Origin: Minisyncoccota bacterium
GTDB taxonomy: Bacteria > Patescibacteriota > Minisyncoccia > Phycocordibacterales > PALSA-1337
Assembly: GCA_028713005.1 (NCBI GenBank)
Contig: JAQTPC010000003.1
Span: 13,022 to 77,021, forward strand
Length of the DNA stretch: 64,000 nt
Direction of reading: 5' to 3'
Made by a program: the position numbers and the translations under genes. Positions 43,919 to 63,325 of the stretch are shown one piece after another (the first letter of the stretch is position 1; each line of letters opens with the position of its first letter). The notes beneath the pieces are model-generated. The model saw nothing but the letters and a program-made list of their open reading frames with translations, was not told the origin of the DNA and searched no databases.

Positions 43919-44293
43919 TTAAAGGTTTTTATCGCTCCAGATGCGGGTCCCAATCTTGGTCACCACCATCACAATGAGCGCCACTACTAGCCACTCATCG
44001 ACTGCATGAGAATAACCTTGAACCATAATGCCGAAAATAAGGATGGCTGATCCTGCAAGGAACGCATTGCGACCGGCGAGAGTCCGATGCTGATCGTCTC
44101 GTTCATCAATAGTTTTTTCTCTTAAGATAAAGCTAGCGAATACAGCAAAGAGAACGAGAATAGCCGCAAGCATACTCATCACCATCATATCTGGCATCCA
44201 AAAATGAAAAGGATTCAAAAGCAATATCGCTGTGACGATAAGGCCGAGGGTAACGATTGATTCGCCGATTATTTCTTTTAGATTATTTTTCAT
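43919..44293 (-). CDS. Small membrane protein downstream of XRE regulator (start trimmed to MKNNLKEII)
   Basis: ~124 aa, 3-4 TM; typical HTH + membrane-protein two-gene pair. Confidence 0.45.
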
Positions 44294-44495
44294 AGGTGAT
44301 TTTAAATATTTTATCAACAGACAGTTCAAAAAAACCAGCAATCTTAAGGGCGAGCAAGATTGATGGGGTGTAATTGCCCTTTTCAAGAGCAATGATGGTC
44401 TGACGGCTGACATTAACTTTCGCCGCCAAATCTTCTTGTGTTACACCGCTTTCTACGCGAAGCTTACTGACTTCATTTTTAATATATTCTCTCAT
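44283..44495 (-). CDS. XRE-family (Cro/CI-type) helix-turn-helix transcriptional regulator
   Basis: 70 aa; HTH motif [23 protein letters not shown]. Confidence 0.8.
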
Positions 44496-44584
44496 ATTTT
44501 TGTATCACTCGGATTATATAGTGCGACATAAAGAATGTAAAGTTATCTTTACTTATAGAAGTTTGGTTGCAATCTTATTTTATT

Positions 44585-44720
44585 GGGGTGGCTAGAGAGA
44601 ATCGAGTCCTACAGACTCAGTACAGGTTTCCCATTTTCTCAGAGCGAAGCTCTTCGAAAATATGGGAGAACCTTTTCGATTCTCTCACGCAAGCAAAATT
44701 GTTTGCTTGCTTAGCCACCC
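44585..44720 (-). ncRNA. tRNA-His-linked structured element A (tRNA-mimicking ends, ~136 nt) lying 3' of tRNA-His
   Basis: 20-nt direct repeat of tRNA-His 3' end (gggtggctagagagaatcga); termini reproduce acceptor strands (GGTGGCTA/TAGCCACC) and T-arm half (TCGATTCTCTC); internal hairpins incl. UUCG tetraloop; homologous to element at 56535-56680. Confidence 0.4.
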
Positions 44721-44758
44721 ACAAATGAAAAAGCCCGCATACGCGGGTTTTTCTCGTG

Positions 44759-44830
44759 GGTGGCTAGAGAGAATCGAACTCTCGATATCGGCTCCACAAA
44801 CCGAAGTTTTACCACTAAACTATAGCCACC
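44759..44830 (-). tRNA. tRNA-His (GTG) with encoded G-1
   Basis: Manual cloverleaf: G-1, acceptor GTGGCTA/TAGCCAC, D GTTT/AAAC, anticodon stem TCGGT/GCCGA loop TTGTGGA, T GAGAG-TTCGATT-CTCTC, discriminator C. Confidence 0.8.
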
Positions 44831-44857
44831 ATATTGCGAATCTATTCCCCGCCTCAA

Positions 44858-45415
44858 TTACTTATAACTTGGGGGTTGCTCAGTTATACCAGATTTATGG
44901 TTAGTAAGTCTAGCTAAAGCATAGAACAACGAAGAAAGTCGATTAAGGAATGCGAGCGTAGCAGGATCCAAAACGAACTCTCCCTTCTCTCCTCCAGCGA
45001 CCACACGACGCTCGGCTTTACGTGCAAGCGTGCGAGAAACATCAAACAACGCCGCAAGTTCAGTACCCCCTGAGATGAAAAATGTTTTTATGGGTGGTAA
45101 TTCTTTTTCAACCCAATCGATCCACTGCTCCATTTGAGTTACCTTACCCTGCCCTACCTTCATCTCTGCTCCAGCTACTTCTGCCTGGACAGTGAAAAGA
45201 TTGTTCTGAACCCAAAAGACAATATCAAATGGTTTTACTCCATCAACGGCCCAACCTGCTTCAACTGATTTCAATTTTGCTAGACCAAGAAATGCGCCAA
45301 GCTCATCGAGAGCACCGAGCGCTTCTGTCTGACAGGAACTTTTTGATTTACGTTCTCCTGGCTTGGATTTAAAATCCTTTGTCGTGCCAGCATCGCCTTT
45401 GCGGGTATAGAGCAT
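44858..45415 (-). CDS. PduO-type ATP:cob(I)alamin adenosyltransferase (MMAB family)
   Basis: 185 aa; N-terminus YTRKGDAGTT...E.LGALDEL typical of PduO/EutT-like adenosyltransferases. Confidence 0.7.
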   Translation of the reverse strand: MLYTRKGDAGTTKDFKSKPGERKSKSSCQTEALGALDELGAFLGLAKLKSVEAGWAVDGVKPFDIVFWVQNNLFTVQAEVAGAEMKVGQGKVTQMEQWIDWVEKELPPIKTFFISGGTELAALFDVSRTLARKAERRVVAGGEKGEFVLDPATLAFLNRLSSLFYALARLTNHKSGITEQPPSYK

Positions 45416-45422
45416 GGTTTAA

Positions 45423-46082
45423 TTATATTAAAGAAATATATTTCATCGGATCTGGAAACCTTTTCTTGTTTTGTTCAATCTTATTTGGAGAACCGTATCC
45501 ATCTAGATTTGCCCACGAATTATTTTGATTTAACTCATTGAAATACTCGGTTGAAATCGTTTGTACGTGTAGATGAGGAAACCAGTTGCCATTATAAGGA
45601 GCTTTTCCTACACTTGCAAAGATAGTATTTTTTTTAAGAAAATCTCCAACTTTACAACCAATTTCTCTGTCGAGATGTGCGTAGACGACATAAATGTCAC
45701 TTTCCATATTTCTTAATATAACTCGTGGGCCCCAGCCTCCCTGCTCAGGATAGTCATCATCGATTCGAACAACCTCAGCACTAAAATCTGTCGCCACTTT
45801 TGTGCCTGGTGGCACATTAAGATCTACACCAAGATGTATATATGCCCTATCCTTATCAAGATAGCTTCCATGCCAAAGGAAACTACGATCCTCCATCCAT
45901 CCACCATATGAAAAAACCACATCATATTTTTTATGAACATCGTCAACCATTTCTTGGCAAATTGCAGGATCAAGAAGAGGATGATCTGTACTTGGAAAAA
46001 TCTTACCCTTGATCCAATCAATTGCCTCTGCATTGAGATTTACGCATTTAGTATTTATATTTTTGAGTTCAGGAAAAATCAT
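45423..46082 (-). CDS. M23-family metalloendopeptidase (peptidoglycan DD-endopeptidase-like)
   Basis: 219 aa; HxxxD (HLGVD) and HLH zinc-ligand motifs. Confidence 0.7.
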   Translation of the reverse strand: MIFPELKNINTKCVNLNAEAIDWIKGKIFPSTDHPLLDPAICQEMVDDVHKKYDVVFSYGGWMEDRSFLWHGSYLDKDRAYIHLGVDLNVPPGTKVATDFSAEVVRIDDDYPEQGGWGPRVILRNMESDIYVVYAHLDREIGCKVGDFLKKNTIFASVGKAPYNGNWFPHLHVQTISTEYFNELNQNNSWANLDGYGSPNKIEQNKKRFPDPMKYISLI

Positions 46083-46151
46083 ACACTAATTATAACAGGC
46101 GCACAGGCGCCTTGTATCCCAAATTACCTATTGTAACTAAACTAAACAATG

Positions 46152-46235
46152 TGCGCGGGAGAAGACTCGAACTTCCATGCCCAAATGGGCGCTACCACCT
46201 CAAGGTAGTGCGTCTACCAATTTCGCCACCCGCGC
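46152..46235 (-). tRNA. tRNA-Leu (GAG), long variable arm
   Basis: Manual cloverleaf: acceptor GCGCGGG/CCCGCGC, anticodon stem CTACC/GGTAG loop TTGAGGT, variable arm CGCCCATTTGGGCAT, T-loop TTCGAGT. Confidence 0.85.
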
Positions 46236-46262
46236 GAATTTTGCACTGCAAAATTCGGATCG
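46236..46262 (-). promoter_or_regulatory. Palindrome (gaattttgca-c-tgcaaaattc) plus GATCCGAATT motif immediately upstream of tRNA-Leu
   Basis: 10-bp perfect IR abutting the tRNA 5' end; 15-mer cttt[ct]gatccgaatt is shared with the tRNA-Val upstream region. Confidence 0.4.
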
Positions 46263-46364
46263 AAAGACTTATTTTTTGGCAAAGCCCGGAAATAAGTTTT
46301 CGACCAGAACTTCTTTACTTACAAGGAACCTGCACACTATAGCTGAAACGAAGCTATTTATCAA

Positions 46365-46402
46365 TAAAAAAGAGGGTTATTGCACCCTCTGTGAAAAAAA
46401 AC
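46365..46402. terminator. Bidirectional intrinsic terminator (agagggt tattgc accctct flanked by A7/T8)
   Basis: 7-bp stem with A-tracts on both sides. Confidence 0.6.
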
Positions 46403-46415
46403 ATGAGTTACCCCA

Positions 46416-46646
46416 TCAACAAGAGTGAAAACCCAAACCAGGCAAATTACCCTCGCCTTGAAACAAATCTTGGAACTCTTCGTGTGGAAGAACGATAGGT
46501 TTTGACAACTCTTCTTGACGCATTGGTTCAATTGCAGCAATAAGTTCTTTGACGCCACCTAAGGCGCCGCAATCTTCAGGCGAGACGTCCGATCCGCAAC
46601 GATGCGCAAGTATACACTTGGCACATATTGGTGATGTAGCATTCAT
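46416..46646 (-). CDS. Small cysteine-rich hypothetical protein
   Basis: 76 aa; CAKC...C...C pattern; followed by terminator. Confidence 0.4.
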   Translation of the reverse strand: MNATSPICAKCILAHRCGSDVSPEDCGALGGVKELIAAIEPMRQEELSKPIVLPHEEFQDLFQGEGNLPGLGFHSC

Positions 46647-55713: not shown

Positions 55714-56520
55714 CTATTGGAGAATAAAATCTCCAATTTTTGTTCTCTTAATGCTCAACGCGAGAGCATGTATACCGAGAGATTCACCAAGCTTTTCTGC
55801 AAGCGTTCTCATATAGGCACCTGAAGATGAATGAACTTTTAATTTAATTACCTGAAAATATTCCTGTGTTGTGCCCCCAGCTTTGATCACCTGTTTCCAT
55901 GAATCAACTATTTCTTCTTGCCTAAAATTACCTTTCACCTTCTGGATCCGCTCAATAATAATTTTCATCAATTCCTTTTTTGAAATTTCCTGCTGACCAA
56001 GAAAATCTATCGAATACACTTCAATCTCTTTTTTGGGCATCTCTATATCATCGAGACTGCCCGATTTTGCATGTTCAAATAGAGGTTTGCCGTTCACTGG
56101 TTTTGAAGAATACGCAGGATATTTTTCTGTGCGTTTACCGACAAGGTTATTTAGTTGTTTCTGAATTATTTCTTCTGATATTTTCTGTGTTTTTCTCTGA
56201 TTCTCAAATCTAACATCTAAAATCTGACCTCCTTGTATTATTTTCCCCAAAACATCCGCCGTATCACTCCCTATCCCGAGCAAGATTTCAACCTCATATT
56301 CTTTGTCGAGCCCTAGATACTGATCTTTCATTTTACATTCATCACCAATGAGGATAAGGAGTAGTCCTTCTGCCATTGGGTCGAGACGGCCGGCGTATGT
56401 CATTGGTACTGACGAATCTATCCCCTTTTCATGACGAAGATGCTCGAGAGCTTCGAGGGGGGTTTGACCTATTAATTTATTTACGAAGAAATATTTTGGC
56501 ACAAGGACATTCTGACACAC
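55714..56520 (-). CDS. truB: tRNA pseudouridine(55) synthase TruB
   Basis: 268 aa; catalytic Asp motif YAGRLDPMAEGLLLILIG. Confidence 0.8.
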   Translation of the reverse strand: MCQNVLVPKYFFVNKLIGQTPLEALEHLRHEKGIDSSVPMTYAGRLDPMAEGLLLILIGDECKMKDQYLGLDKEYEVEILLGIGSDTADVLGKIIQGGQILDVRFENQRKTQKISEEIIQKQLNNLVGKRTEKYPAYSSKPVNGKPLFEHAKSGSLDDIEMPKKEIEVYSIDFLGQQEISKKELMKIIIERIQKVKGNFRQEEIVDSWKQVIKAGGTTQEYFQVIKLKVHSSSGAYMRTLAEKLGESLGIHALALSIKRTKIGDFILQ

Positions 56521-56534
56521 TCTTTTGAATCGGT

Positions 56535-56680
56535 CACAGGAATCTCGCCTTACAGGAATCGAAGCTTACAGCTTCAGTACAGTCTTCGTGTGGTACTCGC
56601 TTCGCTCCGTGCCACATGCTCAGACTTTTCGATTCCTACACGTGAGATGCGCAGGCATCTCACTCGGGGTCACATAAAAT
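56535..56680 (-). ncRNA. tRNA-Arg-linked structured element B, homolog of element A, immediately 3' of tRNA-Arg(GCG)
   Basis: 22/30 identity to element A core (ggaatcgaaGCttacagCTtcagtacag); contains TTCGATTCCTAC identical to the tRNA-Arg T-arm 3' half in inverted orientation; terminal inverted repeat aggaatcgaa/ttcgattcct. Confidence 0.4.
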
Positions 56681-56697
56681 TCGCTACGCTCATTTTC

Positions 56698-56772
56698 TGG
56701 TGCCCCCGGTAGGAATCGAACCTACATTGCAAGATCCGCAATCTTGCGTCCTATCCATTGAACGACGAGGGC
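56698..56772 (-). tRNA. tRNA-Arg (GCG), encoded CCA
   Basis: Acceptor GCCCTCG/CGGGGGC, D GTTC/GGAC, anticodon stem CAAGA/TCTTG loop TTGCGGA, T GTAGG-TTCGATT-CCTAC. Confidence 0.75.
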
Positions 56773-56852
56773 AGTTGAAATACGATACCACACCTTCAGT
56801 AAAACACAAAAGAAAAACCGCTCAATGATTTCACTGAGCGGTTTTCTCGAAG

Positions 56853-57116
56853 CTAGGCAATCTTCGCGAGCGCCGCCATCACACGAGACTTGGTACGTGA
56901 TGAAGCGTTCACTTTGATATAACCAGTCTTAACTGCTTTATCGAGAGCCTGATAAATGACAGGAACAAGCTTTGCTGCTGCTACCTTATCCTTTGCGAGG
57001 ACAAGCTTGCGGAATGCTTTGACGTTCTTTTCAATATCTGACTTGCGGCGGAGATTGAAAACACGCTTCTTTTTTGAAGCACGGAGGGCCTTTTTAGCTG
57101 AAGATGTAATTGCCAT
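56853..57116 (-). CDS. rpsT: 30S ribosomal protein S20
   Basis: 87 aa; S20 N-terminus SSAKKALRASKKKRVFNLRRKS. Confidence 0.9.
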   Translation of the reverse strand: MAITSSAKKALRASKKKRVFNLRRKSDIEKNVKAFRKLVLAKDKVAAAKLVPVIYQALDKAVKTGYIKVNASSRTKSRVMAALAKIA

Positions 57117-57221
57117 ATGATTTAAATGTCCTTGAAAGGTAACATATCACTTAAAAAATGGCAAGAATCCTCGAGGTCTGACCTTGGAATCCAGGCTACA
57201 AAGGTCGGACCTTGCGATTTC

Positions 57222-57230
57222 TGATATAAT
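57222..57230 (+). promoter_or_regulatory. Extended -10 element (TGaTATAAT) 7 nt upstream of ruvA ATG, implying a leaderless or near-leaderless transcript
   Basis: ctgatataat at 57221-57230; ruvA ATG at 57237; no SD. Confidence 0.35.
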
Positions 57231-57236
57231 CAGGCC

Positions 57237-57815
57237 ATGATCGCTACCCTACGTGGACAAGTCACTGAACTCGGCAATCGTTATGCCATCATCGAAGTTG
57301 CCAATATCGGTTACAAAGTATTTTTGACTGATGATTCTATCCATTCATTGAAAGTGGGTACCGAAACATTCCTCTCTATATATAATGTCATTCGTGAAGA
57401 TGCCAATGACCTCTATGGCTTCGTATCACGAAAGGAGCGTGACTTCTTTGAGCTCCTCATCAGTATCTCCGGCATAGGCCCAAAGAGTGCTCTCAATATC
57501 ATGTCCCTCGTTTCAAGTGACACCCTTGTATCAGCCATCCGCAGTGGTTCAACTTCACATCTCGTAAAGGTTTCCGGCATAGGTAGAAAGACGGCTGAAA
57601 AGATTGTACTTGAACTCAAGGATAAGCTCGCTCCCTTTGCGGTTAGTCATGACAGTGAATACTCTGCTGAAATCTCAAGTGATATGGATGCTGTCGAGGC
57701 CCTCATGGCTCTTGGTTTTAGTGCTGACGAGAGTCGTGAAGCACTCAAAAAAATAGATAAGAGTATTTCGGCGACGGGTGCCAAGGTAAAGGCGGCGTTG
57801 AAGATGTTGAGTTAG
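57237..57815 (+). CDS. ruvA: Holliday junction DNA helicase RuvA
   Basis: 192 aa; RuvA N-terminal OB domain and helix-hairpin-helix GIGPKSALNI. Confidence 0.9.
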   Translation: MIATLRGQVTELGNRYAIIEVANIGYKVFLTDDSIHSLKVGTETFLSIYNVIREDANDLYGFVSRKERDFFELLISISGIGPKSALNIMSLVSSDTLVSAIRSGSTSHLVKVSGIGRKTAEKIVLELKDKLAPFAVSHDSEYSAEISSDMDAVEALMALGFSADESREALKKIDKSISATGAKVKAALKMLS

Positions 57816-57881
57816 CACTACGTATAATATTCAGATAAAAAATACCCCGAACGAGTAATATCGTTCGGGGTGATTAAAAAA

Positions 57882-58211
57882 CTATTTCCTCTTAAATGCA
57901 CCCTTAGTGCTTAAACTGCACGCCAGGTGGCCAGCATTTTCTGTTTTTTTCCAAAAACCTTGGAAACCAAGAAAACGTAGAATCGGGTGTGCAATTATCA
58001 TACCGAGCCCCGCTAGGATAATAAGTGCCAGCGCAACAATTAAAAACGGAATAATCAGTGCACTTCCCACGGCAAATATTACCGCGATAATTCCAATTAC
58101 AGCTACTATGCACAGGAATTTGAGAACAGGATTTTTAACTTCCTTTCCCCCAACCTCAACTGTGCTAACGCATTTTCTTTTCATATTACAATCTTTAATT
58201 TCCTTCGCCAA
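57882..58211 (-). CDS. Small hypothetical membrane protein
   Basis: 109 aa; 2 TM. Confidence 0.4.
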   Translation of the reverse strand: MAKEIKDCNMKRKCVSTVEVGGKEVKNPVLKFLCIVAVIGIIAVIFAVGSALIIPFLIVALALIILAGLGMIIAHPILRFLGFQGFWKKTENAGHLACSLSTKGAFKRK

Positions 58212-58353
58212 AATTTAGTGTAAATTCCAGCAGAGTCGCCTTTTCTAAGGGCATTGTTTATTTCAAACTTCAAAACTACTTGGTCGCATTATATCACAGT
58301 ATTTGTATAAAAGCAATATCCCATAAACCCCCGAAATAAGCCATACTATACCC

Positions 58354-59619
58354 ATGCTCGACTCATTCCTCGCCAAAACACGTAACTGGATACCAAAAGC
58401 TCTATTCCGCATCGCCAACCCGCTCTACCATCGTACACTCGCTTTCGTGGCAGCCTGCATATACCGCTTCCCTTCTCGTCACATCAAAGTCATCGGTATC
58501 ACCGGAACCAAAGGCAAAAGCTCAACAGTGGAAATACTCAATGCCATACTCGAAGAAGCTGGCTACAAGACCGCCCTCACGAACACTATCCGTTTCAAGA
58601 TCGGTGACATGTCATCTGATAACCTCTACAAGATGAGCATGCCCGGACGTTTCTTCATGCAAAAATTCCTCCGCAGTGCAGTCAAACATAAATGTGATTA
58701 TGCGATCCTCGAAATGACATCTCAAGGCGCAATCACCTACCGTCACCTCTTTATCGACATGGACGCATTCATTTTCACCAATATTTCTCCTGAGCACATA
58801 GAGGCCCACGGCTCATATGAACATTATCTCAATGCCAAAGTATCCATCGCTCGTCGTCTGGCAGTTTCAAAAAAGAAAAATCGTATCATGATCGCTAATG
58901 GCGATGATAAGGAAGTTGAGAAATTCCTTGAGTGTGACGCTGATCAAAAGATGCGCTTCCACATAACAGACGTTGCACCCTACACTATTAAAAAAGAAGG
59001 TATTGATTTTACTCTGACAAAGACACCAGTCACCTCTCAGCTCTCTGGCCTCTTTAATCTCTACAATATCCTCGCCGCTATCACTGCAGCGCAAAGCCAA
59101 GGCATTTCAAACGATATCATCATCCGCGCTATAGAAAAATTTAATGGCATAAAGGGTCGTGTTGAGCTCATCGATGCAGGACAAGATTTCAAAGTAGTCG
59201 TCGACTATGCCCATACGCCAGATTCGCTTGAAAAAGTGTATCAAGTTTTCCAATCGTCTCGTAATATATGTATTCTTGGTGGGACAGGTGGTGGACGTGA
59301 CACATGGAAGCGCGGAGAGATGGGGCACATCGCTGACGAATACTGTGATGAAGTTATTCTGACTGATGAAGATCCTTATGATGAAAATCCTGAAAATATT
59401 GTAAACGACGTAGCAAAAGGCATGACTCATGCGCCAACTATCATAATGGACCGTCGTATGGCTATCAGAGAAGGCATCAAACGTGCACAAACAGGCGACG
59501 TTGTCATCATCACTGGAAAAGGAACCGATCCGTATATCATGGGACCACAAGGAACAAAGACGCCGTGGAGTGATGCTCGTGTAGCAAAAGAAGAACTCGA
59601 GAAAAGACTTTCTAACTAG
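58354..59619 (+). CDS. Mur ligase family protein (MurE/MurF-like central and C-terminal domains; no N-terminal domain)
   Basis: 421 aa; ATP-binding GITGTKGKSST, FTNISPEHIEAHGS, C-terminal DYAHTPDSL...GGTGGGRD. Confidence 0.7.
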   Translation: MLDSFLAKTRNWIPKALFRIANPLYHRTLAFVAACIYRFPSRHIKVIGITGTKGKSSTVEILNAILEEAGYKTALTNTIRFKIGDMSSDNLYKMSMPGRFFMQKFLRSAVKHKCDYAILEMTSQGAITYRHLFIDMDAFIFTNISPEHIEAHGSYEHYLNAKVSIARRLAVSKKKNRIMIANGDDKEVEKFLECDADQKMRFHITDVAPYTIKKEGIDFTLTKTPVTSQLSGLFNLYNILAAITAAQSQGISNDIIIRAIEKFNGIKGRVELIDAGQDFKVVVDYAHTPDSLEKVYQVFQSSRNICILGGTGGGRDTWKRGEMGHIADEYCDEVILTDEDPYDENPENIVNDVAKGMTHAPTIIMDRRMAIREGIKRAQTGDVVIITGKGTDPYIMGPQGTKTPWSDARVAKEELEKRLSN

Positions 59620-59622
59620 CCA

Positions 59623-60927
59623 CTAGAAACTTATACCGTAATTAGTATTTAATATTTGCATTGTCCTTTGTCCGACAATGTTTGTTTCACCAGATATACT
59701 GTACTTTTTTTGAAATTGTTGAAGCGCTGTTTGGGTGCATGGACCGAGCTTCCCTGTACGCGGACAATCACTCAGATCACGTGCATAGGGCGGATACTCC
59801 CCGTCAACAAGGAGTGCTGACTGCAGAGCAAAGACATCTGTATTTTGAGTATTTTTTTCTGAAATAACACTCTTCCATGTATGTGGTAATGCAACCGTAT
59901 CATATGCCCGACTTACAGCCGCAGCATCAGGAGCACTAAAGAAATCTTCGAGACCGAGATATGTCTGAAATGCGAGGTCTTTGATGGCAAGATCGCGTGT
60001 GCCTGCATTCAAAAACTGTGGTTCGTAGATATATCCATACTCAATCAACATACTCGCCGCATCAGCGGTATCATGTGCACCGATTGCGATCAGATCGGGA
60101 TCTTCAACTATACCTGCAGATTCACCCGTCAAACTGCTCACGGGATTATACTTACTTAACCGTTTAAATATTGTTTCAGCGACAACTTTGCTTGTAGCAC
60201 TATTAGCATACTGACGTTCAGGGATATATATTGCAAAACCAGTATGATCGCCAGGAGTTCGACTACCATGACCTGGTGCATCATTGAAATGAATATGGAT
60301 AGTTATATCTACATCATTCTCATTTGCCCACTTTGTGATACCGTAAAGTCTATATGCTACATTACTTGGTGCCTTATTGTGGTATACGGTCTTTGTAGGA
60401 GGTACCACTGTGCCCGAAGATATACGGTGAGCAATATCCTGAGCTGAGCCGGCTTGCCAATCGATGATATTCTGCCAGTTATTCTTAAAATACTCAGCGA
60501 AAATCGGTGACCAATCGTTACCGTCTCGAGTAACAAAAACTTCATAATGGGTGTCCTTCTCAAGAAAACCGGCAAGGTCTTGCGCGAGTTCCACGGTCAT
60601 ATCACGCTCTTTGAGTGAACTGTATTCTGCCCCACCATAGTTTGGTTCATGTCCGGGTACAATCAAAATACGAACTTTATTATGGATACTTTTATCATTT
60701 ATAGATGCAACTTGAACTATGGGAGAGGTGTAGCGTGACTTTATGTCAGCGACAGTCTTTGGATTATGACTCAAAATAACAGCAGCGAGTTGTTCGGTCG
60801 CTTGGGAGAATATCTGTGCAACATAATCAACTTCCCCGCCAAAACGAGATGAGACGGCCGGGACGCCAAAGAGCATCAATGCCAAAATAGTGACAAGGTA
60901 GTACTTCACGTATGTATTATAACTCAT
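59623..60927 (-). CDS. N-acetylmuramoyl-L-alanine amidase (Amidase_3-like) with C-terminal peptidoglycan-binding (PG_binding_1) domain
   Basis: 434 aa; signal/TM N-terminus; ILIVPGHEPNYGGAEY amidase motif; C-terminal LQSALLVDGEYP...GKLGPCTQTALQQFQ. Confidence 0.7.
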   Translation of the reverse strand: MSYNTYVKYYLVTILALMLFGVPAVSSRFGGEVDYVAQIFSQATEQLAAVILSHNPKTVADIKSRYTSPIVQVASINDKSIHNKVRILIVPGHEPNYGGAEYSSLKERDMTVELAQDLAGFLEKDTHYEVFVTRDGNDWSPIFAEYFKNNWQNIIDWQAGSAQDIAHRISSGTVVPPTKTVYHNKAPSNVAYRLYGITKWANENDVDITIHIHFNDAPGHGSRTPGDHTGFAIYIPERQYANSATSKVVAETIFKRLSKYNPVSSLTGESAGIVEDPDLIAIGAHDTADAASMLIEYGYIYEPQFLNAGTRDLAIKDLAFQTYLGLEDFFSAPDAAAVSRAYDTVALPHTWKSVISEKNTQNTDVFALQSALLVDGEYPPYARDLSDCPRTGKLGPCTQTALQQFQKKYSISGETNIVGQRTMQILNTNYGISF

Positions 60928-60935
60928 TTTTGTTT

Positions 60936-60973
60936 CTGCGCAGGTCTACCCTTGCAAGGGTAGACCTGCGCAG
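60936..60973. promoter_or_regulatory. Perfect 38-bp palindrome (16-bp arms ctgcgcaggtctaccc / gggtagacctgcgcag around ttgcaa) between divergent amidase and fpg starts
   Basis: Read directly; 9 nt from amidase start codon and 23 nt from fpg start. Confidence 0.5.
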
Positions 60974-60995
60974 AGGTTTGGTTTACTATGCCCAT

Positions 60996-61937
60996 ATGCC
61001 CGAACTCCCCGAAGTGCAAACAACAGTCACCGGACTCAATCGGACCATTACCGGGCAAACCATCACTGATGTATGGACTGATTACAATAGCCCTTATTTC
61101 AAAGGATCTAATACCATTAAAGATCCAGTTTATTTTAAGCATTTCAAAAAAGAAATTCTTAATAAAAAAATTACCTCTGTCACCCGTCGGGCAAAAAATG
61201 TGCTTATACATCTCGATTCAGGAAAGACTATCCTCATTCACATGAAAATGACTGGACATATCATCATTGGACGATATGTATTTGATTCAAAAAAGAAAAA
61301 AGACTCATGGGTTCCTGCACCTGATGAACGAAAGGCTCTTCACGATCCATTCAATCGTTTTATCCATTTTGTCCTAACTTTTTCCAATGGAAAACAGATG
61401 GCTTTTTCTGATATGAGAAAATTTGCCAAAGTAACTTTGCTAGAAAATCACACTGAGCATTTGATAGACCTTGGCCCTGAACCATTGGAAGCTGGTTTCA
61501 CCTACTCTATTTTCAAATCTCAACTCAATAAAAAACCTACGGGAAAAATAAAAACTGTCTTGATGGATCAAACTGTTATCTCTGGTGTTGGAAATATCTA
61601 CAGTGATGAAGCTCTCTGGCGCGCTGGTATACATCCAGAAAAAAGAGTTCGCGATATTCCTGATCAATCACTCAAGATACTATACTCAGCAACTAAAGAT
61701 GTTCTCGAAAAAGGCATCGATTTTGGCGGGGACTCTATGTCTGACTATAGAAACATCGATGGGGAGCGTGGAAAATTTCAAGAACAGCACCAAGCCTATA
61801 GAAAAACTGGCAAGATTTGTGGCATTAAAATCAAAGCCATGCCTGGCGGCAGACAGGAAAAGACCTGTAAAGGAATTATTCAAAGAAAAGTCATTGGTGG
61901 CCGAAGTGCCCACTTCTGCCCTGTTCATCAGTTGTAG
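60996..61937 (+). CDS. mutM: Formamidopyrimidine-DNA glycosylase (start trimmed to MPELPEV)
   Basis: 313 aa; N-terminal PELPEVQT catalytic Pro2/Glu3, C-terminal zinc finger CxxC...CxxC (CKGIIQRKVIGGRSAHFCPVHQ). Confidence 0.85.
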   Translation: MPELPEVQTTVTGLNRTITGQTITDVWTDYNSPYFKGSNTIKDPVYFKHFKKEILNKKITSVTRRAKNVLIHLDSGKTILIHMKMTGHIIIGRYVFDSKKKKDSWVPAPDERKALHDPFNRFIHFVLTFSNGKQMAFSDMRKFAKVTLLENHTEHLIDLGPEPLEAGFTYSIFKSQLNKKPTGKIKTVLMDQTVISGVGNIYSDEALWRAGIHPEKRVRDIPDQSLKILYSATKDVLEKGIDFGGDSMSDYRNIDGERGKFQEQHQAYRKTGKICGIKIKAMPGGRQEKTCKGIIQRKVIGGRSAHFCPVHQL

Positions 61938-61964
61938 CTTTCCTCGAGGTTGAACCTTGAGGTA

Positions 61965-62474
61965 TTAGTCAGTATCGAGCAAACGATATAAAAATATTCC
62001 CGCCGACACTGAAACATTCAGAGACTCTTTTTGACCTCGGAGGGGTATCTCGGCGATAACATCAGCGAGCTCAAGAATTGGTTTTGATACTCCTTCGACT
62101 TCATTGCCAAGGATAATGACTACTTTATTTTTTGAAGAGGATGCGAGACTAATCTGTTTGTAGTCGAGCGATCGTGGTGATTGTTCGAGAGCCACGATCT
62201 TTGCACCAGCTTTCTTTAATTTGTTGAGGATGGAACCTCCCTCTTCTGCATGCTCCCAAGAAATGGTATTTTCTGCACCTAAAGCAACTTTTGCAAAATC
62301 ACTGCGCTTATTGCCAAAACGATCATGTGGCGTTGGAGTTGTACCAATGCAATATATCTTTGATATACCAAGTGTTTCGGCTGTTCTAAATATAGAACCG
62401 ACATTATGGACGCTACGGATATTATCAAGTAACAGATGAGCCTCTCGCCTTTTTTGCTTATTTTCTGTTATCAT
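61965..62474 (-). CDS. SpoU/TrmH-family RNA 2'-O-methyltransferase
   Basis: 169 aa; SPOUT motifs LLDNIRSVHNVGSIFRTAE, IILGNEVEGVS. Confidence 0.8.
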   Translation of the reverse strand: MITENKQKRREAHLLLDNIRSVHNVGSIFRTAETLGISKIYCIGTTPTPHDRFGNKRSDFAKVALGAENTISWEHAEEGGSILNKLKKAGAKIVALEQSPRSLDYKQISLASSSKNKVVIILGNEVEGVSKPILELADVIAEIPLRGQKESLNVSVSAGIFLYRLLDTD

Positions 62475-62879
62475 TACTCTACATTAACTGAATATAACAT
62501 TAACATCAATATGCTTTCTCTCTTTCCATCACTTCTCGCATACGAACAAGTTGGTCCAATGATCATCCGTCTCGTTCTCGGTATTACTCTTCTTTATTTT
62601 GGATATGAAAAATTGATCAAAAAGGGCACCAGCTCTGGTAGTAATGCAAAAGGTTACGGCGCAGTCGAAGTCATCATTGCCCTCTTCCTCATCATTGGTC
62701 TTTTCACACAACTTGCAGCGCTCTTGAATGCTATCATCCTCGTCATCAAACTTGGTTTCAAGGCACGCGACAAAGAACTCCTTTCGAATGGCATCAACTA
62801 CTACATTCTTCTTTTGGCTATGGCTATCGCGGTTATCTTCATGGGGCCAGGATTGCTCGCATACGATTTGCATGTGTAA
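62436..62879 (+). CDS. DoxX-family membrane protein
   Basis: 147 aa; 4 TM, DoxX-like N-terminus. Confidence 0.65.
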   Translation: MSLSPFLLIFCYHYSTLTEYNININMLSLFPSLLAYEQVGPMIIRLVLGITLLYFGYEKLIKKGTSSGSNAKGYGAVEVIIALFLIIGLFTQLAALLNAIILVIKLGFKARDKELLSNGINYYILLLAMAIAVIFMGPGLLAYDLHV

Positions 62880-63011
62880 GTAAAGCATAAGAACGAAACT
62901 TGATTTAAAGTTGATTTATAAGTATAGTTTTTACCACGCGCCCATATTTCCATATAGGCGCTGCGCTCAGGTCCACAGCCCGAGCGAGCTCGGTCTCCGG
63001 TCCCTTCGCTT

Positions 63012-63084
63012 GCGCCCATAGCTCAGTCGGTAGAGCAACTCCCTTTTAAGGAGTGGGTCGTTGGTTCGATTCCAACTGGGCGCA
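63012..63084 (+). tRNA. tRNA-Lys (TTT)
   Basis: Acceptor GCGCCCA/TGGGCGC, D GCTC/GAGC, anticodon stem ACTCC/GGAGT loop CTTTTAA, T GTTGG-TTCGATT-CCAAC. Confidence 0.85.
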
Positions 63085-63089
63085 CATAA

Positions 63090-63114
63090 GAAAATCCGCT
63101 TCGGCGGATTTTTG
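63090..63114 (+). terminator. Intrinsic terminator after tRNA-Lys (atccgc ttcg gcggat + T5)
   Basis: 6-bp stem, UUCG loop, TTTTT. Confidence 0.6.
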
Positions 63115-63325
63115 AATGAGCGGTCAAGCAATGCACCTTCGTGCATTGCGGGTTGGAATCGAACGGTGAGCGATGTCGAGTTCAGCAGGACGAGACCGTG
63201 AACCGGTGCCCAGGAGGAGTTTGCGGGTAGCAAACGACGACGAGGGCGATTCCAGTTTGATGTAGCACAATCAGCACATAAAGCTGTATAATATTTCCAA
63301 ACAAACTAGAACCTTTTAATAATAT

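Follow-up and report, generated by a model that had tools for sequence, protein, structure and literature searches.

The window analysed here, a stretch of 64,000 nucleotides, carries a tRNA-His(GTG) gene on its minus strand, followed on the same strand by a terminator-like hairpin and then by an element of 135 nt (element A, 44586-44720). The parts of this locus, in the direction of the tRNA, are as follows.

44758..44829, minus strand: tRNA-His(GTG), the gene preceding element A (ARAGORN; Rfam tRNA model, 67.2 bits)
44758-44777, minus strand: left direct repeat, tRNA-His positions 55-74 (repeat search)
44728..44752, minus strand: H0, intrinsic-terminator-like hairpin AAAAACCCGC-GTAT-GCGGGCTTTTT between tRNA-His and element A (terminator scan)
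44712..44720, minus strand: X', the 5' strand of P1, GGGTGGCTA, complement of tRNA positions 66-74 (inverted repeats, fold)
44689..44710, minus strand: P2, hairpin of 9 bp with loop CAAT (inverted repeat, fold)
44676..44686, minus strand: Y', the 'guide' and 5' strand of P3, GAGAGAATCGA, complement of tRNA positions 55-65 (inverted repeats)
44625..44675, minus strand: J3/4 (AAAAG) and the long hairpin P4, GGTTCTCCCATATTTTC...GAGAAAATGGGAAACC (fold, consensus structure, covariation)
44604..44624, minus strand: J4/5 (TGTACT) and hairpin P5, GAGTC-TGTAG-GACTC (fold, shared pattern, consensus structure)
44586..44605, minus strand: right direct repeat, reproducing tRNA-His positions 55-74 exactly and supplying the 3' strands of P3 and P1 (100% repeat, boundary analysis)

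Element A opens with tRNA positions 55-74 in inverted form, interrupted by P2, continues with a conserved three-way junction (GAAAAG, P4, UGUACU, P5) and closes with a direct copy of the same tRNA segment. P2 sits at the acceptor/T-stem boundary of the inverted copy, J3/4 shares nucleotides with the guide's end and with the initial G of P4, and P5 leads with its 3' strand straight into the right direct repeat. The guide matches tRNA-His itself at 12 of 12 positions when T54 is counted in. H0 is the tip of a long imperfect palindrome composed of the tRNA-His 3' end (11 nt) and the 5' arm of element A, and the repeat search returned the inverted repeat 44712-44722 / 44756-44766 (11/11) around it.

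A preliminary description had placed a tRNA-mimicking segment 3' of tRNA-His on the same strand, a location borne out by ARAGORN and Rfam, which put tRNA-His on the minus strand. The exact 20-nt direct repeat that it reported, reading GGGTGGCTAGAGAGAATCGA on the plus strand and TCGATTCTCTCTAGCCACCC on the tRNA strand (tRNA positions 55-74), is present, with one copy at 44758-44777 as described and the first copy at 44586-44605 rather than 44588-44607, a shift of 2 nt. The listed hairpins are likewise present, gcaagcaaa/tttgcttgc corresponding to P2 and cccatattttc.../...gagaaaatggg, with the AGAGC-UUC-GCUCU tip, to P4. The terminal arms GGGTGGCTA (44712-44720) and TAGCCACCC (44586-44594), which had been taken for the two acceptor strands of the tRNA, are complementary at 9 of 9 positions, but the 5' arm is for the most part the complement of the tRNA 3' strand and not a copy of the 5' strand, and the supposed T-arm half has the letters CTCGATTCTCTC, not TTCGATTCTCTC. 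The mimicry applies to the 'top half' of a tRNA, acceptor and T stem, and does not go as far as a tRNA call by ARAGORN or the Rfam tRNA model.

A 138-nt stretch at element A folds as RNA at -69.6 kcal/mol (z = -9.3), a value equalled by 0 of 200 shuffles, and as DNA at -42.9 kcal/mol (z = -9.6), both strands being of equal folding quality as DNA. The 150 nt between the direct repeats contain no ORF; ORFs around the element encode HTH, thioredoxin-like, TruB, S20 and RuvA proteins. Element A lies between a strong predicted terminator and a promoter-like site of the next gene, which suggests, from these predicted signals, that its position is transcriptionally silent.

A second homologous copy had been proposed behind tRNA-Arg(GCG). 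Its presence is upheld by a 27-position pattern common to both copies, which matches the window twice against 0 matches expected, and by a covariance model built from other genomes, in which they reach 80.5 and 79.0 bits, compared with 11.9 bits for the next best site in the window. The parts of this copy (element B) and of a third element behind tRNA-Lys(TTT) are given below, some end positions being shortened to their last digits.

56527..56697, minus strand: element B, after tRNA-Arg(GCG) (56698-72) (alignment, covariance model)
56673-97, minus strand: H0-like hairpin of element B
56664-73, minus strand: X'-like segment
56642-63, minus strand: P2
56629-39, minus strand: guide
56582-625, minus strand: P4
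56576-81, minus strand: J4/5
56561-75, minus strand: P5
56546-62, minus strand: truncated direct copy
63091..63268, plus strand: third element, after tRNA-Lys(TTT) (63012-85), same frame, z = -4.4
63091-112, plus strand: terminator of the third element
63127-49, plus strand: P2
63152-62, plus strand: guide
63248-68, plus strand: decayed copy

P2 is fully compensatory between elements A and B, and also between orthologues. Element B is fused to the 3' end of a second element with a different core (56527-45), and from comparison with the orthologous locus L079 we infer that the fusion probably arose through a ~133-nt deletion. The core of the tRNA-Lys element also differs, consisting of two hairpins (63163-247) inside the same frame as in element A. 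ARAGORN called the 7 true tRNAs of the window alone and none of the elements. At E <= 10, the Rfam scan over 44400-44900 returned the true tRNA-His as its sole match and that of 56400-63300 only true tRNAs; around the three elements, no known RNA family besides tRNA was found at E <= 10 or E <= 1.

The elements belong to a large family. An exact-pattern scan recovered at least 117 genomic and at least 120 metagenomic loci, and, among the matches listed, nearly all named genomic records with the element are Patescibacteria. A tRNA gene on the same strand lies within 120 nt upstream in 81 of the 124 genomic pattern matches listed (30 anticodon classes) and, in the metagenome replicate, 72 of 125 matches listed are tRNA-linked (28 anticodons), an overall share of ~60-65% of loci among the matches listed. 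Many of the seemingly tRNA-less cases are contig ends or have tRNA 3' ends missed by ARAGORN, some of them apparently intron-containing. Elements have no coding capacity, measure roughly 110-190 nt and follow the consensus GAA(A)AG - P4 - (U)GUAC(U/A)G - P5, with a YGUAR loop in P5. In most cases their inverted copy is split by a conserved P2 hairpin where its acceptor and T-stem parts join. The H0 hairpin is often a terminator, which stands in front of 44 of 81 copies and is missing from 37. In the fetched loci, a biased sample, an element is present after 80 of 168 tRNAs, and in tRNA clusters elements are found between co-oriented tRNAs.

The arms follow the neighbouring tRNA. The direct copy has a median score of 18 against the cognate tRNA versus 8 against non-cognate ones, and the guide similarity medians are 11 and 7, respectively; in 71 of 79 cases the guide shows no more than 2 mismatches (0-2), and 46 of the 79 direct copies are perfect. 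Only about one in three family members forms the acceptor-like stem P1. The repeat runs family-wide from T54/55 to just after C74, and the CCA-less tRNA genes inspected all end at C74, as does the direct copy. Where the tRNA has a G·U pair, the 5' arm complements the 3' strand by Watson-Crick pairing in 27 cases and repeats the 5' strand in 12, so that the arms look templated; in several elements linked to tRNA-Ala, G3·U70 is replaced by A:U. P4 identity is nearly equal in pairs with the same anticodon (0.637) and with different anticodons (0.632), indicating that the core type is independent of tRNA identity. P2 similarity, which is uninformative here, shows no correlation with the anticodon, and tRNA-type-specific lineages were rejected because neither P4 nor P2 similarity follows the anticodon.

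The preliminary description had regarded a small element family or a functional trailer RNA as likelier than a random remnant, to be abandoned if no further copies and no covariation were found. Hundreds more copies exist, next to ~30 kinds of tRNA, and P4 and P5 covary strongly, with 94.2% of cells paired versus 77.1% in shuffles and 288 versus 76 double-change cells; copies and covariation together support that view. The core of ~96 positions recurs with compensatory changes at more than 240 independent loci, and conservation of its unpaired nucleotides, in junctions and loops, extends to 28 divergent members outside the pattern selection. On the tRNA-sense strand, G·U outnumbers A·C in P4 and P5 by 39:11 among the genomic elements and by 56:19 in an independent set from metagenomes, and this ~3:1 bias in two sets led us to reject an RNA of the antisense strand ending at the bidirectional-looking terminator. 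The terminal loops are GNA in 32 of 48 triloops and GNRA in 6 of 36 tetraloops, with no UNCG. GNA mini-hairpins of the GCGAAGC/GCGTAGC type, which are unusually stable DNA hairpins, repeat in H0, in P4 tips and in the T-loop insert. P2 is always on the strand of the inverted copy, and an insert of 2 nt or a hairpin of 13-14 nt always on that of the direct copy, after TCGAN. When folded, the sense strand forms a rod in which the tRNA segment is paired with its own complement and the junction serves as cap.

A plain tRNA-His trailer in relatives had been named as a finding that would point to a one-off decayed duplication. Close relatives do lack the element behind an identical tRNA-His, with a flanking gene 83-91% identical, but, taken with the other evidence, the absence reads as presence/absence polymorphism rather than such a duplication. 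In five related lineages the DNA behind tRNA-His diverges exactly after C74, and in two of them a large-serine-recombinase island begins there; we rejected this island as the parent element, since no element core or second tRNA-His end lies within 10 kb. When the orthologous tRNA-Arg elements of two related genomes are compared, P4 shows 5 double compensatory changes and the P2 stem has changed at 6 of 9 pairs, all by transitions, while the 57 nt of guide, junctions and P5 show no difference. Judged by these substitutions, the pattern looks like long-term selection on a copy in place, favoring a host-level function.

Elements with different cores can stack after one tRNA (L079, L074 and L012), the proximal repeat being perfect and the distal one decayed. 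Tandem units are 100% identical in P4; P4 identity within assemblies is 0.52-0.88, and dispersed near-identical copies are absent. A metagenome scan for tandem arrays with gaps of 45-75 nt, a range too narrow for most known arrays, returned none. Besides element B, truncated or deletion-fused copies occur at L006, L057 and L072. Ten sequences with different cores ('family B') yielded no consensus alignable beyond the closing helix.

Searches for known families and partner proteins returned no counterpart. Rfam 15 at gathering thresholds, applied to the window and 12 loci, gave no ribozyme or riboswitch match, the phage, plasmid and IMG/VR collections gave no element match, and no description of such elements was found in the full-text literature searched; the family is thus absent from Rfam and from that literature, and is unannotated. 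Clustering of 1074 neighbouring ORFs from 117 loci produced housekeeping families only, with no recombinase enriched, no recombinase, transposase, reverse transcriptase or HUH-type enzyme linked to the elements, and no consistent neighbour or downstream gene as with riboswitches. No integron integrase was seen among the window ORFs scanned. An HTH_23 protein with a LAGLIDADG-like GLYWGEG motif, encoded upstream of some tRNA-plus-element units, was dismissed as a partner, tblastn placing it at only 8 of ~240 loci. A phage origin of the window, suggested by its many tRNAs, was likewise discarded: its genes are bacterial housekeeping genes (TypA, TruB, Mur ligase, PilM), there was no phage DNA match for the window, and the closest protein is named Candidatus Pacebacteria.

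Several known classes fail as well. A tandem tRNA paralogue conflicts with the 5' arm being mostly the complement of the 3' strand at G·U positions, and a tRNA or tRNA pseudogene (RF00005) with the lack of a cloverleaf detectable by ARAGORN or Rfam. A MITE is unsuitable, as the terminal inverted repeats vary with each tRNA and near-identical copies occur only as tandem units, and a tmRNA/YrlA-type RNA has no ARAGORN tmRNA or Rfam match, the elements being multi-copy and tRNA-linked. A group I or II tRNA intron is excluded by the intact upstream tRNA and the absence of intron-model matches; PMC13011429 reports anticodon-loop group I introns only, and detected no group II introns in Patescibacteria. 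Of the marks of an integrase island, the direct repeat of the tRNA 3' end is present, and an integrase or recombinase gene or remnant inside the insert is not.

We tentatively favor, at somewhat short of even confidence, the interpretation that element A is a copy of a protein-less insertion cassette that is specific for tRNA 3' ends and folds as a single strand. Such a cassette would enter at the tRNA 3' end and leave the tRNA intact, both junctions falling right after C74 and the duplication from T54/55 lying directly next to the core with its conserved junction. A putative trans-acting factor would recognise the element by this junction, and the paired arms would be either the determinant of the target or the substrate itself. 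Once inserted, cassettes could pile up behind one tRNA or give rise to tandem duplicates, and recombination between repeats could remove them, selection keeping the fold of those that persist; about half, without a terminator in front, would be transcribed as tRNA trailers. This interpretation is supported by the tRNA linkage with matching arms, the sharp boundaries, presence/absence, stacking and the sense-strand fold, and also by the templated arms, the tRNA-independent core type, the silent position predicted for element A and the lack of coding capacity or of a steady neighbour. Against it stand the missing recombinase, transposase or reverse transcriptase and the missing near-identical dispersed copies within a genome, hence no sign of recent transposition bursts. 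The compensatory changes with identical junctions in orthologues point instead to a host-level function, the matching of both arms to each new tRNA has no account in the cassette interpretation, the copies without terminator predict co-transcription with the tRNA, and presence at about half of tRNAs, even in a biased sample, is high for junk in reduced genomes.

The main rival is a functional tRNA-trailer RNA, which we regard as only slightly less likely than the cassette. Transcription would run from the tRNA into the element, through read-through or within a tRNA cluster, and the RNA, a mimic of the tRNA top half (acceptor plus extended T stem), would take part in the metabolism of tRNA 3' ends or in its control. 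It could, for instance, serve RNase P, RNase Z or the CCA-adding enzyme as substrate, decoy or sensor, or it could be a switch whose guide pairs with the tRNA 3' end or the downstream copy; a cassette-like origin would be mere history. The structured strand is indeed the tRNA-sense strand, junction and loop nucleotides are kept in the 28 members outside the search pattern, and orthologues combine compensatory transitions with invariant junctions. P2, moreover, takes the place at which a real tRNA has its D and anticodon arms branching off the acceptor/T stack, the direct copy ends at C74 like CCA-less tRNA genes, and the 37 terminator-less copies, the elements between co-oriented tRNAs in clusters and the prevalence in the (biased) fetched loci all fit. 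However, element A stands behind a canonical terminator and upstream of the next promoter-like site, a terminator also precedes 44 of 81 members, and the element is dispensable at tRNA-His in close relatives. P1 is formed in about a third of members only, and in several tRNA-Ala-linked elements A:U stands in place of G3·U70, so that the element is no identity mimic; the loops are mostly GNA triloops, with few GNRA and no UNCG tetraloops, and a purely structural helix has no cause to match the neighbouring tRNA.

We consider it unlikely that the elements are a protein-gene-free system programmed by base pairing, in which a junction module is joined to a 20-nt reader of one tRNA 3' end that is checked by a built-in copy. 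Two versions are possible: an RNA- or ssDNA-guided self-inserting cassette that takes its target specificity from the inverted copy and has it re-written with every tRNA, or, where tRNA genes are single-copy, a sensor or regulator that monitors the 3'-end integrity of one tRNA each. Either, if true, would be a kind of element so far undescribed.

Decidedly unlikely, in our view, is a folded single-stranded DNA site, a mechanistic version of the insertion cassette in which the sense strand extrudes as the active branched hairpin and would be acted on by a host or mobile-element enzyme. It would be an attachment site mimicking a duplex tRNA end, as in CTX attP and integron attC, or an IS200/IS605-type end of hairpin plus guide. 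The sense strand is the lagging-strand template for co-directional tRNA genes, and the order of repeat, hairpin, inverted copy, core and repeat would be the trace of integration of a folded single-stranded circle. The strand-specific extra-helical features (P2 and the insert after TCGAN), the Watson-Crick rather than G·U arms, the recurrence of GNA mini-hairpins in H0, P4 tips and the T-loop insert, the predicted silent position of element A and the equal folding of both strands as DNA agree with such a site. Nevertheless, attC and CTX attP have conserved, protein-bound outer arms and a variable centre, the reverse of the arrangement here, no integrase or HUH-type enzyme gene is linked, and the GNA triloops and the excess of G·U over A·C also fit RNA.

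It appears highly improbable that the element is a self-cleaving ribozyme or a riboswitch aptamer of a new type in which P3 would be the open or switching helix. The core would suit such an identity, being a compact three-way junction whose junction strands are conserved and whose peripheral stems vary, as would different cores in the same frame, ribozyme classes being able to share a genomic context; yet there is no Rfam ribozyme or riboswitch match even at E <= 10 and no downstream gene association of the riboswitch type, and in our comparison the junction strands (5, 6 and 0 nt) did not map onto the CUGANGA/GAA/H layout of a hammerhead-like core. Finally, inert scars, either attL/attR leftovers of integrase islands or decayed duplications of tRNA 3' ends with no structural role, are hardly credible: duplicating 20 nt of a tRNA 3' end is what integration classically leaves behind, the 3' flank of tRNA-His serves relatives as an integration hot spot and some copies are truncated or deletion-fused, but covariation and recurrence of the core at so many independent loci effectively refute this explanation, which also gives no reason for conserved junction nucleotides, for orthologues keeping the fold through multiple double substitutions or for a tRNA-specific inverted copy at every site.

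Patescibacteria have ~1-Mb genomes in which most tRNA genes are single-copy and in which few mobile elements and few regulatory RNAs have been recognised, and in the fetched loci, biased as the sample is, roughly every second tRNA gene is trailed by a conserved structure fitted to its tRNA. If mobile, the elements would target tRNA ends without an element-encoded enzyme and with arms tracking the target, which bears on the origin of tRNA integration hot spots and on possible programmable insertion. If functional RNAs, they would be a large missing tRNA-linked RNA class in a major, mostly uncultured bacterial lineage, with an unusual tRNA 3'-end biology, as the inspected CCA-less tRNA genes all end at C74. 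In either case, the elements can confuse calls of tRNA flanks and island boundaries, and a covariance model is now available for finding more.

Compared with known systems, the elements resemble tRNA-integrated islands and prophages in their position 3' of an intact tRNA, in the direct repeat from the T loop to the tRNA end, in tandem stacking at one tRNA and in presence/absence between relatives. They differ from these in their size of 110-190 nt without an integrase or other gene, in combining an inverted copy of the attachment segment with a covarying three-way junction, and in using one core at ~30 tRNA types with arms matched to each. With integron attC and CTX attP they share a length of about 60-140 nt, an imperfect one-strand hairpin with strand-specific extra-helical features, the arrangement of site, rest, inverted site, loop and site, and independence of a gene of their own. 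In those sites, however, the paired arms are conserved recombinase boxes and the tip is variable, whereas here the arms follow the tRNA and the tip is conserved; an unsystematic look revealed no dif-like boxes or integron integrase for the elements. Like MITEs, REP/BIME and IS200/IS605-derived palindrome elements, they are small, non-coding, hairpin-rich, intergenic and multi-copy and would have to be mobilised in trans, but unlike in those elements their terminal repeats equal the end of the neighbouring tRNA instead of being constant, location and orientation 3' of tRNAs are strict, and there are no near-identical copies per genome. Among tRNA-like RNAs (YrlA/Y-RNA-like RNAs, viral 3' tRNA-like structures, the tmRNA domain and mascRNA), similar stacked helices of acceptor- and T-stem type with a continuous 3' strand and a branch where D and anticodon arms would be are found, and enzymes reading the top half could see the elements. 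Here, by contrast, a three-way junction stands in place of the T loop, which is base-paired throughout, positions 73 and 74 are included in the acceptor helix, the sequence is that of the neighbouring tRNA, and tRNA, tmRNA and YrlA models do not detect the elements. Unlike the guide-directed mobile elements, namely group II introns with EBS-IBS pairing, IS110 with its bridge RNA and IS608 with guide-target pairing, they come with no intron or transposase protein and their 20-nt complementary segment is paired with an accompanying sense copy, but they have in common with them a conserved structured scaffold joined to a variable segment that is complementary to the insertion site.

A conserved core recurs behind about 30 tRNA types, flanked in each case by the last 20 nt of its own tRNA in one direct and one inverted copy; this is the central fact that any account of these elements must explain. 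Element A, the 135-nt segment 3' of tRNA-His, lies in a bacterial chromosome segment with housekeeping genes (including TypA/BipA, TruB, RluD-like, Mur ligase, PilM and L19); Candidatus Pacebacteria, which belongs to the Patescibacteria, is the name on the closest database protein. The locus reads as follows.

44758-44829, minus strand: tRNA-His(GTG)
44728-44752, minus strand: canonical terminator hairpin, directly after tRNA-His in minus-strand order
44712-44720, minus strand: X' (GGGTGGCTA), complement of tRNA-His positions 66-74
44689-44710, minus strand: P2, perfect 9-bp hairpin
44676-44686, minus strand: Y' or guide (GAGAGAATCGA), complement of tRNA-His positions 55-65
between guide and P4, minus strand: AAAAG
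44625-44672, minus strand: P4, long hairpin
between P4 and P5, minus strand: TGTACT
44604-44618, minus strand: P5, short hairpin
44586-44605, minus strand: exact copy of tRNA-His positions 55-74, 3' end of the element

The exact 20-nt direct repeat given in the preliminary description is real and occupies 44586-44605 and 44758-44777, the first coordinate having been placed 2 nt off. Element A folds much more stably than shuffled sequence both as RNA (-69.6 kcal/mol, z = -9.3) and as DNA (z = -9.6). Its inverted copy matches tRNA-His itself over a slightly longer stretch than it matches the downstream copy, with 12/12 positions in the T-arm part (T54 included) and 11/11 in the acceptor part (two trailer bases included); thus, the tRNA-His end, the terminator and X' form one long palindrome. 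Just downstream of the element, a strong sigma-70-like promoter match (TTTACA-17-TATAAT, 11/12; 44513-44541, minus strand) faces a 70-aa XRE-type HTH gene (44283-44495).

Element B, the second copy after tRNA-Arg(GCG) noted earlier, spans 56527-56697 (minus strand) and indeed shares the architecture of element A, with fully compensatory P2, P4 and P5 stems. In L079, the tRNA-Arg(GCG) orthologue from a related genome (Cob adenosyltransferase 90% identical), 57 nucleotides across the guide, junctions and P5 are identical; P4 has 7 pairs unchanged, 5 double compensatory changes and 1 pair broken, and 6/9 pairs of P2 are changed, every one by paired transitions, with the loop CTGC kept. This orthologue is the most telling comparison in support of selection on the fold. 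Compared with L079 (alignment A4), element B lacks approximately 133 nt, and its copy runs into the 3' end (GTGACC|GATTC) of another element, one with a different core, which L079 retains intact. The odd 3' arm of element B (56527-56562) is thus accounted for by a deletion of this length, which fused an A-type element to the different-core one. The window contains one further tRNA-trailing element:

63091-63268, plus strand: third element, after tRNA-Lys(TTT) (63012-63085)

Its frame is that of element A, with a terminator, a P2 hairpin, an 11-nt guide matching the tRNA-Lys T arm and a decayed copy, but its core consists of two hairpins unlike the core of elements A and B. In the retrieved loci, about 20 tRNAs are trailed by such other-core elements, which appear heterogeneous.

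The preliminary description had proposed a tRNA-targeting small element family or a functional trailer RNA, and the covariance model and genome scans revealed both further copies and covariation. An exact pattern derived from the two window copies (TCGAAAAG-N30-60-CTGTACTGANNCTGTA) was present in at least 117 genomic loci (one genome per species) and at least 120 further metagenomic contigs. Among the matches listed, nearly all named genomic records are Patescibacteria, including Saccharibacteria, Paceibacteria, Kaiserbacteria, Taylorbacteria, Campbellbacteria and Minisyncoccia. Typical elements also occur on contigs in bins with other names (L020, L022, L061 in a MAG labelled Patiriisocius, and L024 in a MAG labelled Acidimicrobiales); the Patiriisocius- and Acidimicrobiales-labelled contigs are probably mis-binned. 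Two other loci, L037 (Acetatifactor) and L184, were rejected as chance pattern matches within other sequence. The covariance model R1, built from 69 non-redundant sequences (alignment A2), scored the two window copies at 80.5 and 79.0 bits (next best, 11.9 bits) and gave 131, 32 and 128 matches in the retrieved genome and metagenome loci, some from members outside the search pattern.

Linkage to tRNAs is pervasive. Among the matches listed, a same-strand tRNA ends within 120 nt upstream in 81/124 of the genome set, representing 30 anticodon classes, and another 14, most of them the second unit of a tandem, lie 120-400 nt from a tRNA; linkage in the metagenome set is similar (72/125 of those listed, 28 anticodons). 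Many of the apparent tRNA-less exceptions are at contig ends or follow a tRNA 3' end located after an intron-like stretch missed by ARAGORN. Upstream of two elements without a detected tRNA (L138:200-300 and L163:3400-3500), a common motif, GGTTCT(A/T)GCCCGAGAC(C/G)GC..., preceded by GAGCACGAGAC..CGTC..CGGTCAAGC, occupies the expected tRNA position and may represent a tRNA or other RNA gene that has an intron or is unusual in some other way. Arm sequences fit the cognate tRNA much more closely than they fit other tRNAs: among the matches listed, the 11-nt guide has 0-2 mismatches in 71/79, 46/79 copies show no mismatch over 11 nt, and X' can be made out in only around one-third. Clean repeats start at T54/T55 and end directly after N73-C74. 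In a subclass spread over many different tRNAs, the copy is interrupted after TCGAN by a 2-nt bulge or a 13-14-nt hairpin. Conversely, 80/168 tRNAs in the retrieved loci have a guide within 200 nt downstream, about 20 of them with other cores. In all CCA-less tRNA genes inspected (window ends 44758, 46151, 51160, 55060 and 63085, and most retrieved loci), the encoded end is N73-C74, in most cases with an A next, and DNA specific to the lineage begins directly after C74, which suggests an unusual, conserved 3'-end boundary of tRNA genes in these organisms.

Covariation was computed on the MAFFT alignment A2, in which 94.2% of cells have standard pairs, compared with 77.1 ± 0.6% in shuffles and 31-50% with slid partners. 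Both sides change in 18/26 pairs, and double-change cells number 288 (76 ± 7 in shuffles). In P3, the guide pairing, covariation is trivial because the arms are tRNA-derived; that in P4 and P5 is independent evidence for the fold. Conserved nucleotides, namely GAA in the junction strand J3/4, GUAC(U/A)G in J4/5 and the YGUAR loop of P5, persist in 28 divergent members outside the pattern selection, and the junctions may act as a recognition module. On the tRNA-sense strand, G·U exceeds A·C in P4 and P5 in both the genome set (39:11) and the independent metagenome set (56:19), identifying this as the structured strand. At three loci (L006, L061 and L118, the last on the minus strand beyond the second unit of the tandem), a conserved insert of ~75-85 nt (AAYAARTTT...AAAAGTAAACTT...AGTA) lies right after CTGTA of the P5 loop and may be another tiny element targeting this loop.

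Orthologous tRNA-His loci, located via the flanking Cob adenosyltransferase (83-91% identical; tRNA-His identical), all lack element A. Unrelated DNA follows tRNA-His in L119/L120 and L121. In L122-L128 and L125 (e.g., L126:10638-20558), C74 is directly followed by the start of a genomic island, which opens with a large serine recombinase of 528 aa (Resolvase, Recombinase and Zn_ribbon_recom domains) and also has restriction-modification genes of DpnII type; a search within 10 kb revealed no second tRNA-His end. In the window and all compared relatives, divergence begins directly after C74. Different-core elements are stacked behind one tRNA in L079, L074 and L012, with the perfect repeat in the tRNA-proximal one. 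Units of a tandem are identical (100%), but copies dispersed through one assembly share only 52-88% identity in P4. P4 similarity is independent of the anticodon (0.637 vs 0.632) and somewhat higher within assemblies (0.52-0.88) than between them (mean 0.63). Only housekeeping genes recur near the elements in the retrieved loci. Some tRNA-plus-element units (L105, L028, L009, L132, L186, L167/L210 and L201) have, upstream and in the same orientation, a gene for a protein of ~220 aa that combines an N-terminal homeodomain-like HTH with a GLYWGEG (LAGLIDADG-like) motif; tblastn placed it in only 8 of ~240 listed loci.

Direct and inverted copies of each tRNA's last 20 nt require a duplicative, insertion-like origin at each site. 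Given such an origin, the stacked and tandem copies, the sharpness of the boundaries and the presence/absence pattern, we rank first, albeit tentatively, the account in which the element would be a non-autonomous insertion cassette specific for tRNA 3' ends. Nearly as likely, and likewise short of an even chance, is a functional tRNA-trailer RNA, consistent with compensatory evolution in place, with no sign of recent bursts and with the large share of occupied tRNAs in very small genomes. These accounts are compatible, since a cassette can be domesticated. Mobility, any function and the junction's part as a recognition module are inferred; the anatomy, distribution, tRNA matching, boundaries, covariation, strand, polymorphism and lack of database matches are observed. 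The most concrete version of the cassette account, judged separately, has a folded single strand as the mechanism and seems improbable. A new ribozyme or aptamer is a remote possibility, and the covariation all but excludes inert scars.

The evidence on whether the folded form is RNA or single-stranded DNA is divided. Strand-specific G·U pairs, conserved single-stranded nucleotides, the placement of some elements inside tRNA clusters and the lack of a terminator in front of 37/81 copies among the matches listed point to RNA. Single-stranded DNA, or at least the lack of a highly expressed RNA, is favored by the terminator preceding the other 44/81, the position of element A between a strong terminator and the promoter-like site of the next gene (11/12 consensus positions), and arms that are Watson-Crick at tRNA G·U positions (27 vs 12). 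The same holds for the terminal loops, where GNA triloops (e.g., GCGAAGC, GCGTAGC) dominate (32/48 triloops), GNRA occurs in only 6/36 tetraloops and UNCG in none of the loops. The mini-hairpin motif (U)GAGCG(A/U)AGCGAA, which includes GCGAAGC or GCGTAGC with a GNA triloop (56673-56697 in the window), is found at P4 tips, in the H0 hairpins between tRNA and element and in T-loop inserts, as well as in spacers, at many loci.

The elements have no known counterpart in Rfam 15, which gave no family match to any of them even at permissive thresholds, nor similar DNA in virus or plasmid collections: the exact pattern had zero matches in IMG/VR, BLAST of element A found no match among phages and plasmids, and the wider region 44000-46500 none among phages. 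The full-text literature search returned no description of the elements, the only related paper concerning anticodon-loop group I introns (PMC13011429). The nearest known systems are tRNA-integrated islands, folded attC/attP sites, MITE/REP-type elements, tRNA-like RNAs and guide-directed mobile elements; each has some features in common with the elements described here, yet differs from them in at least one of the defining features tested.
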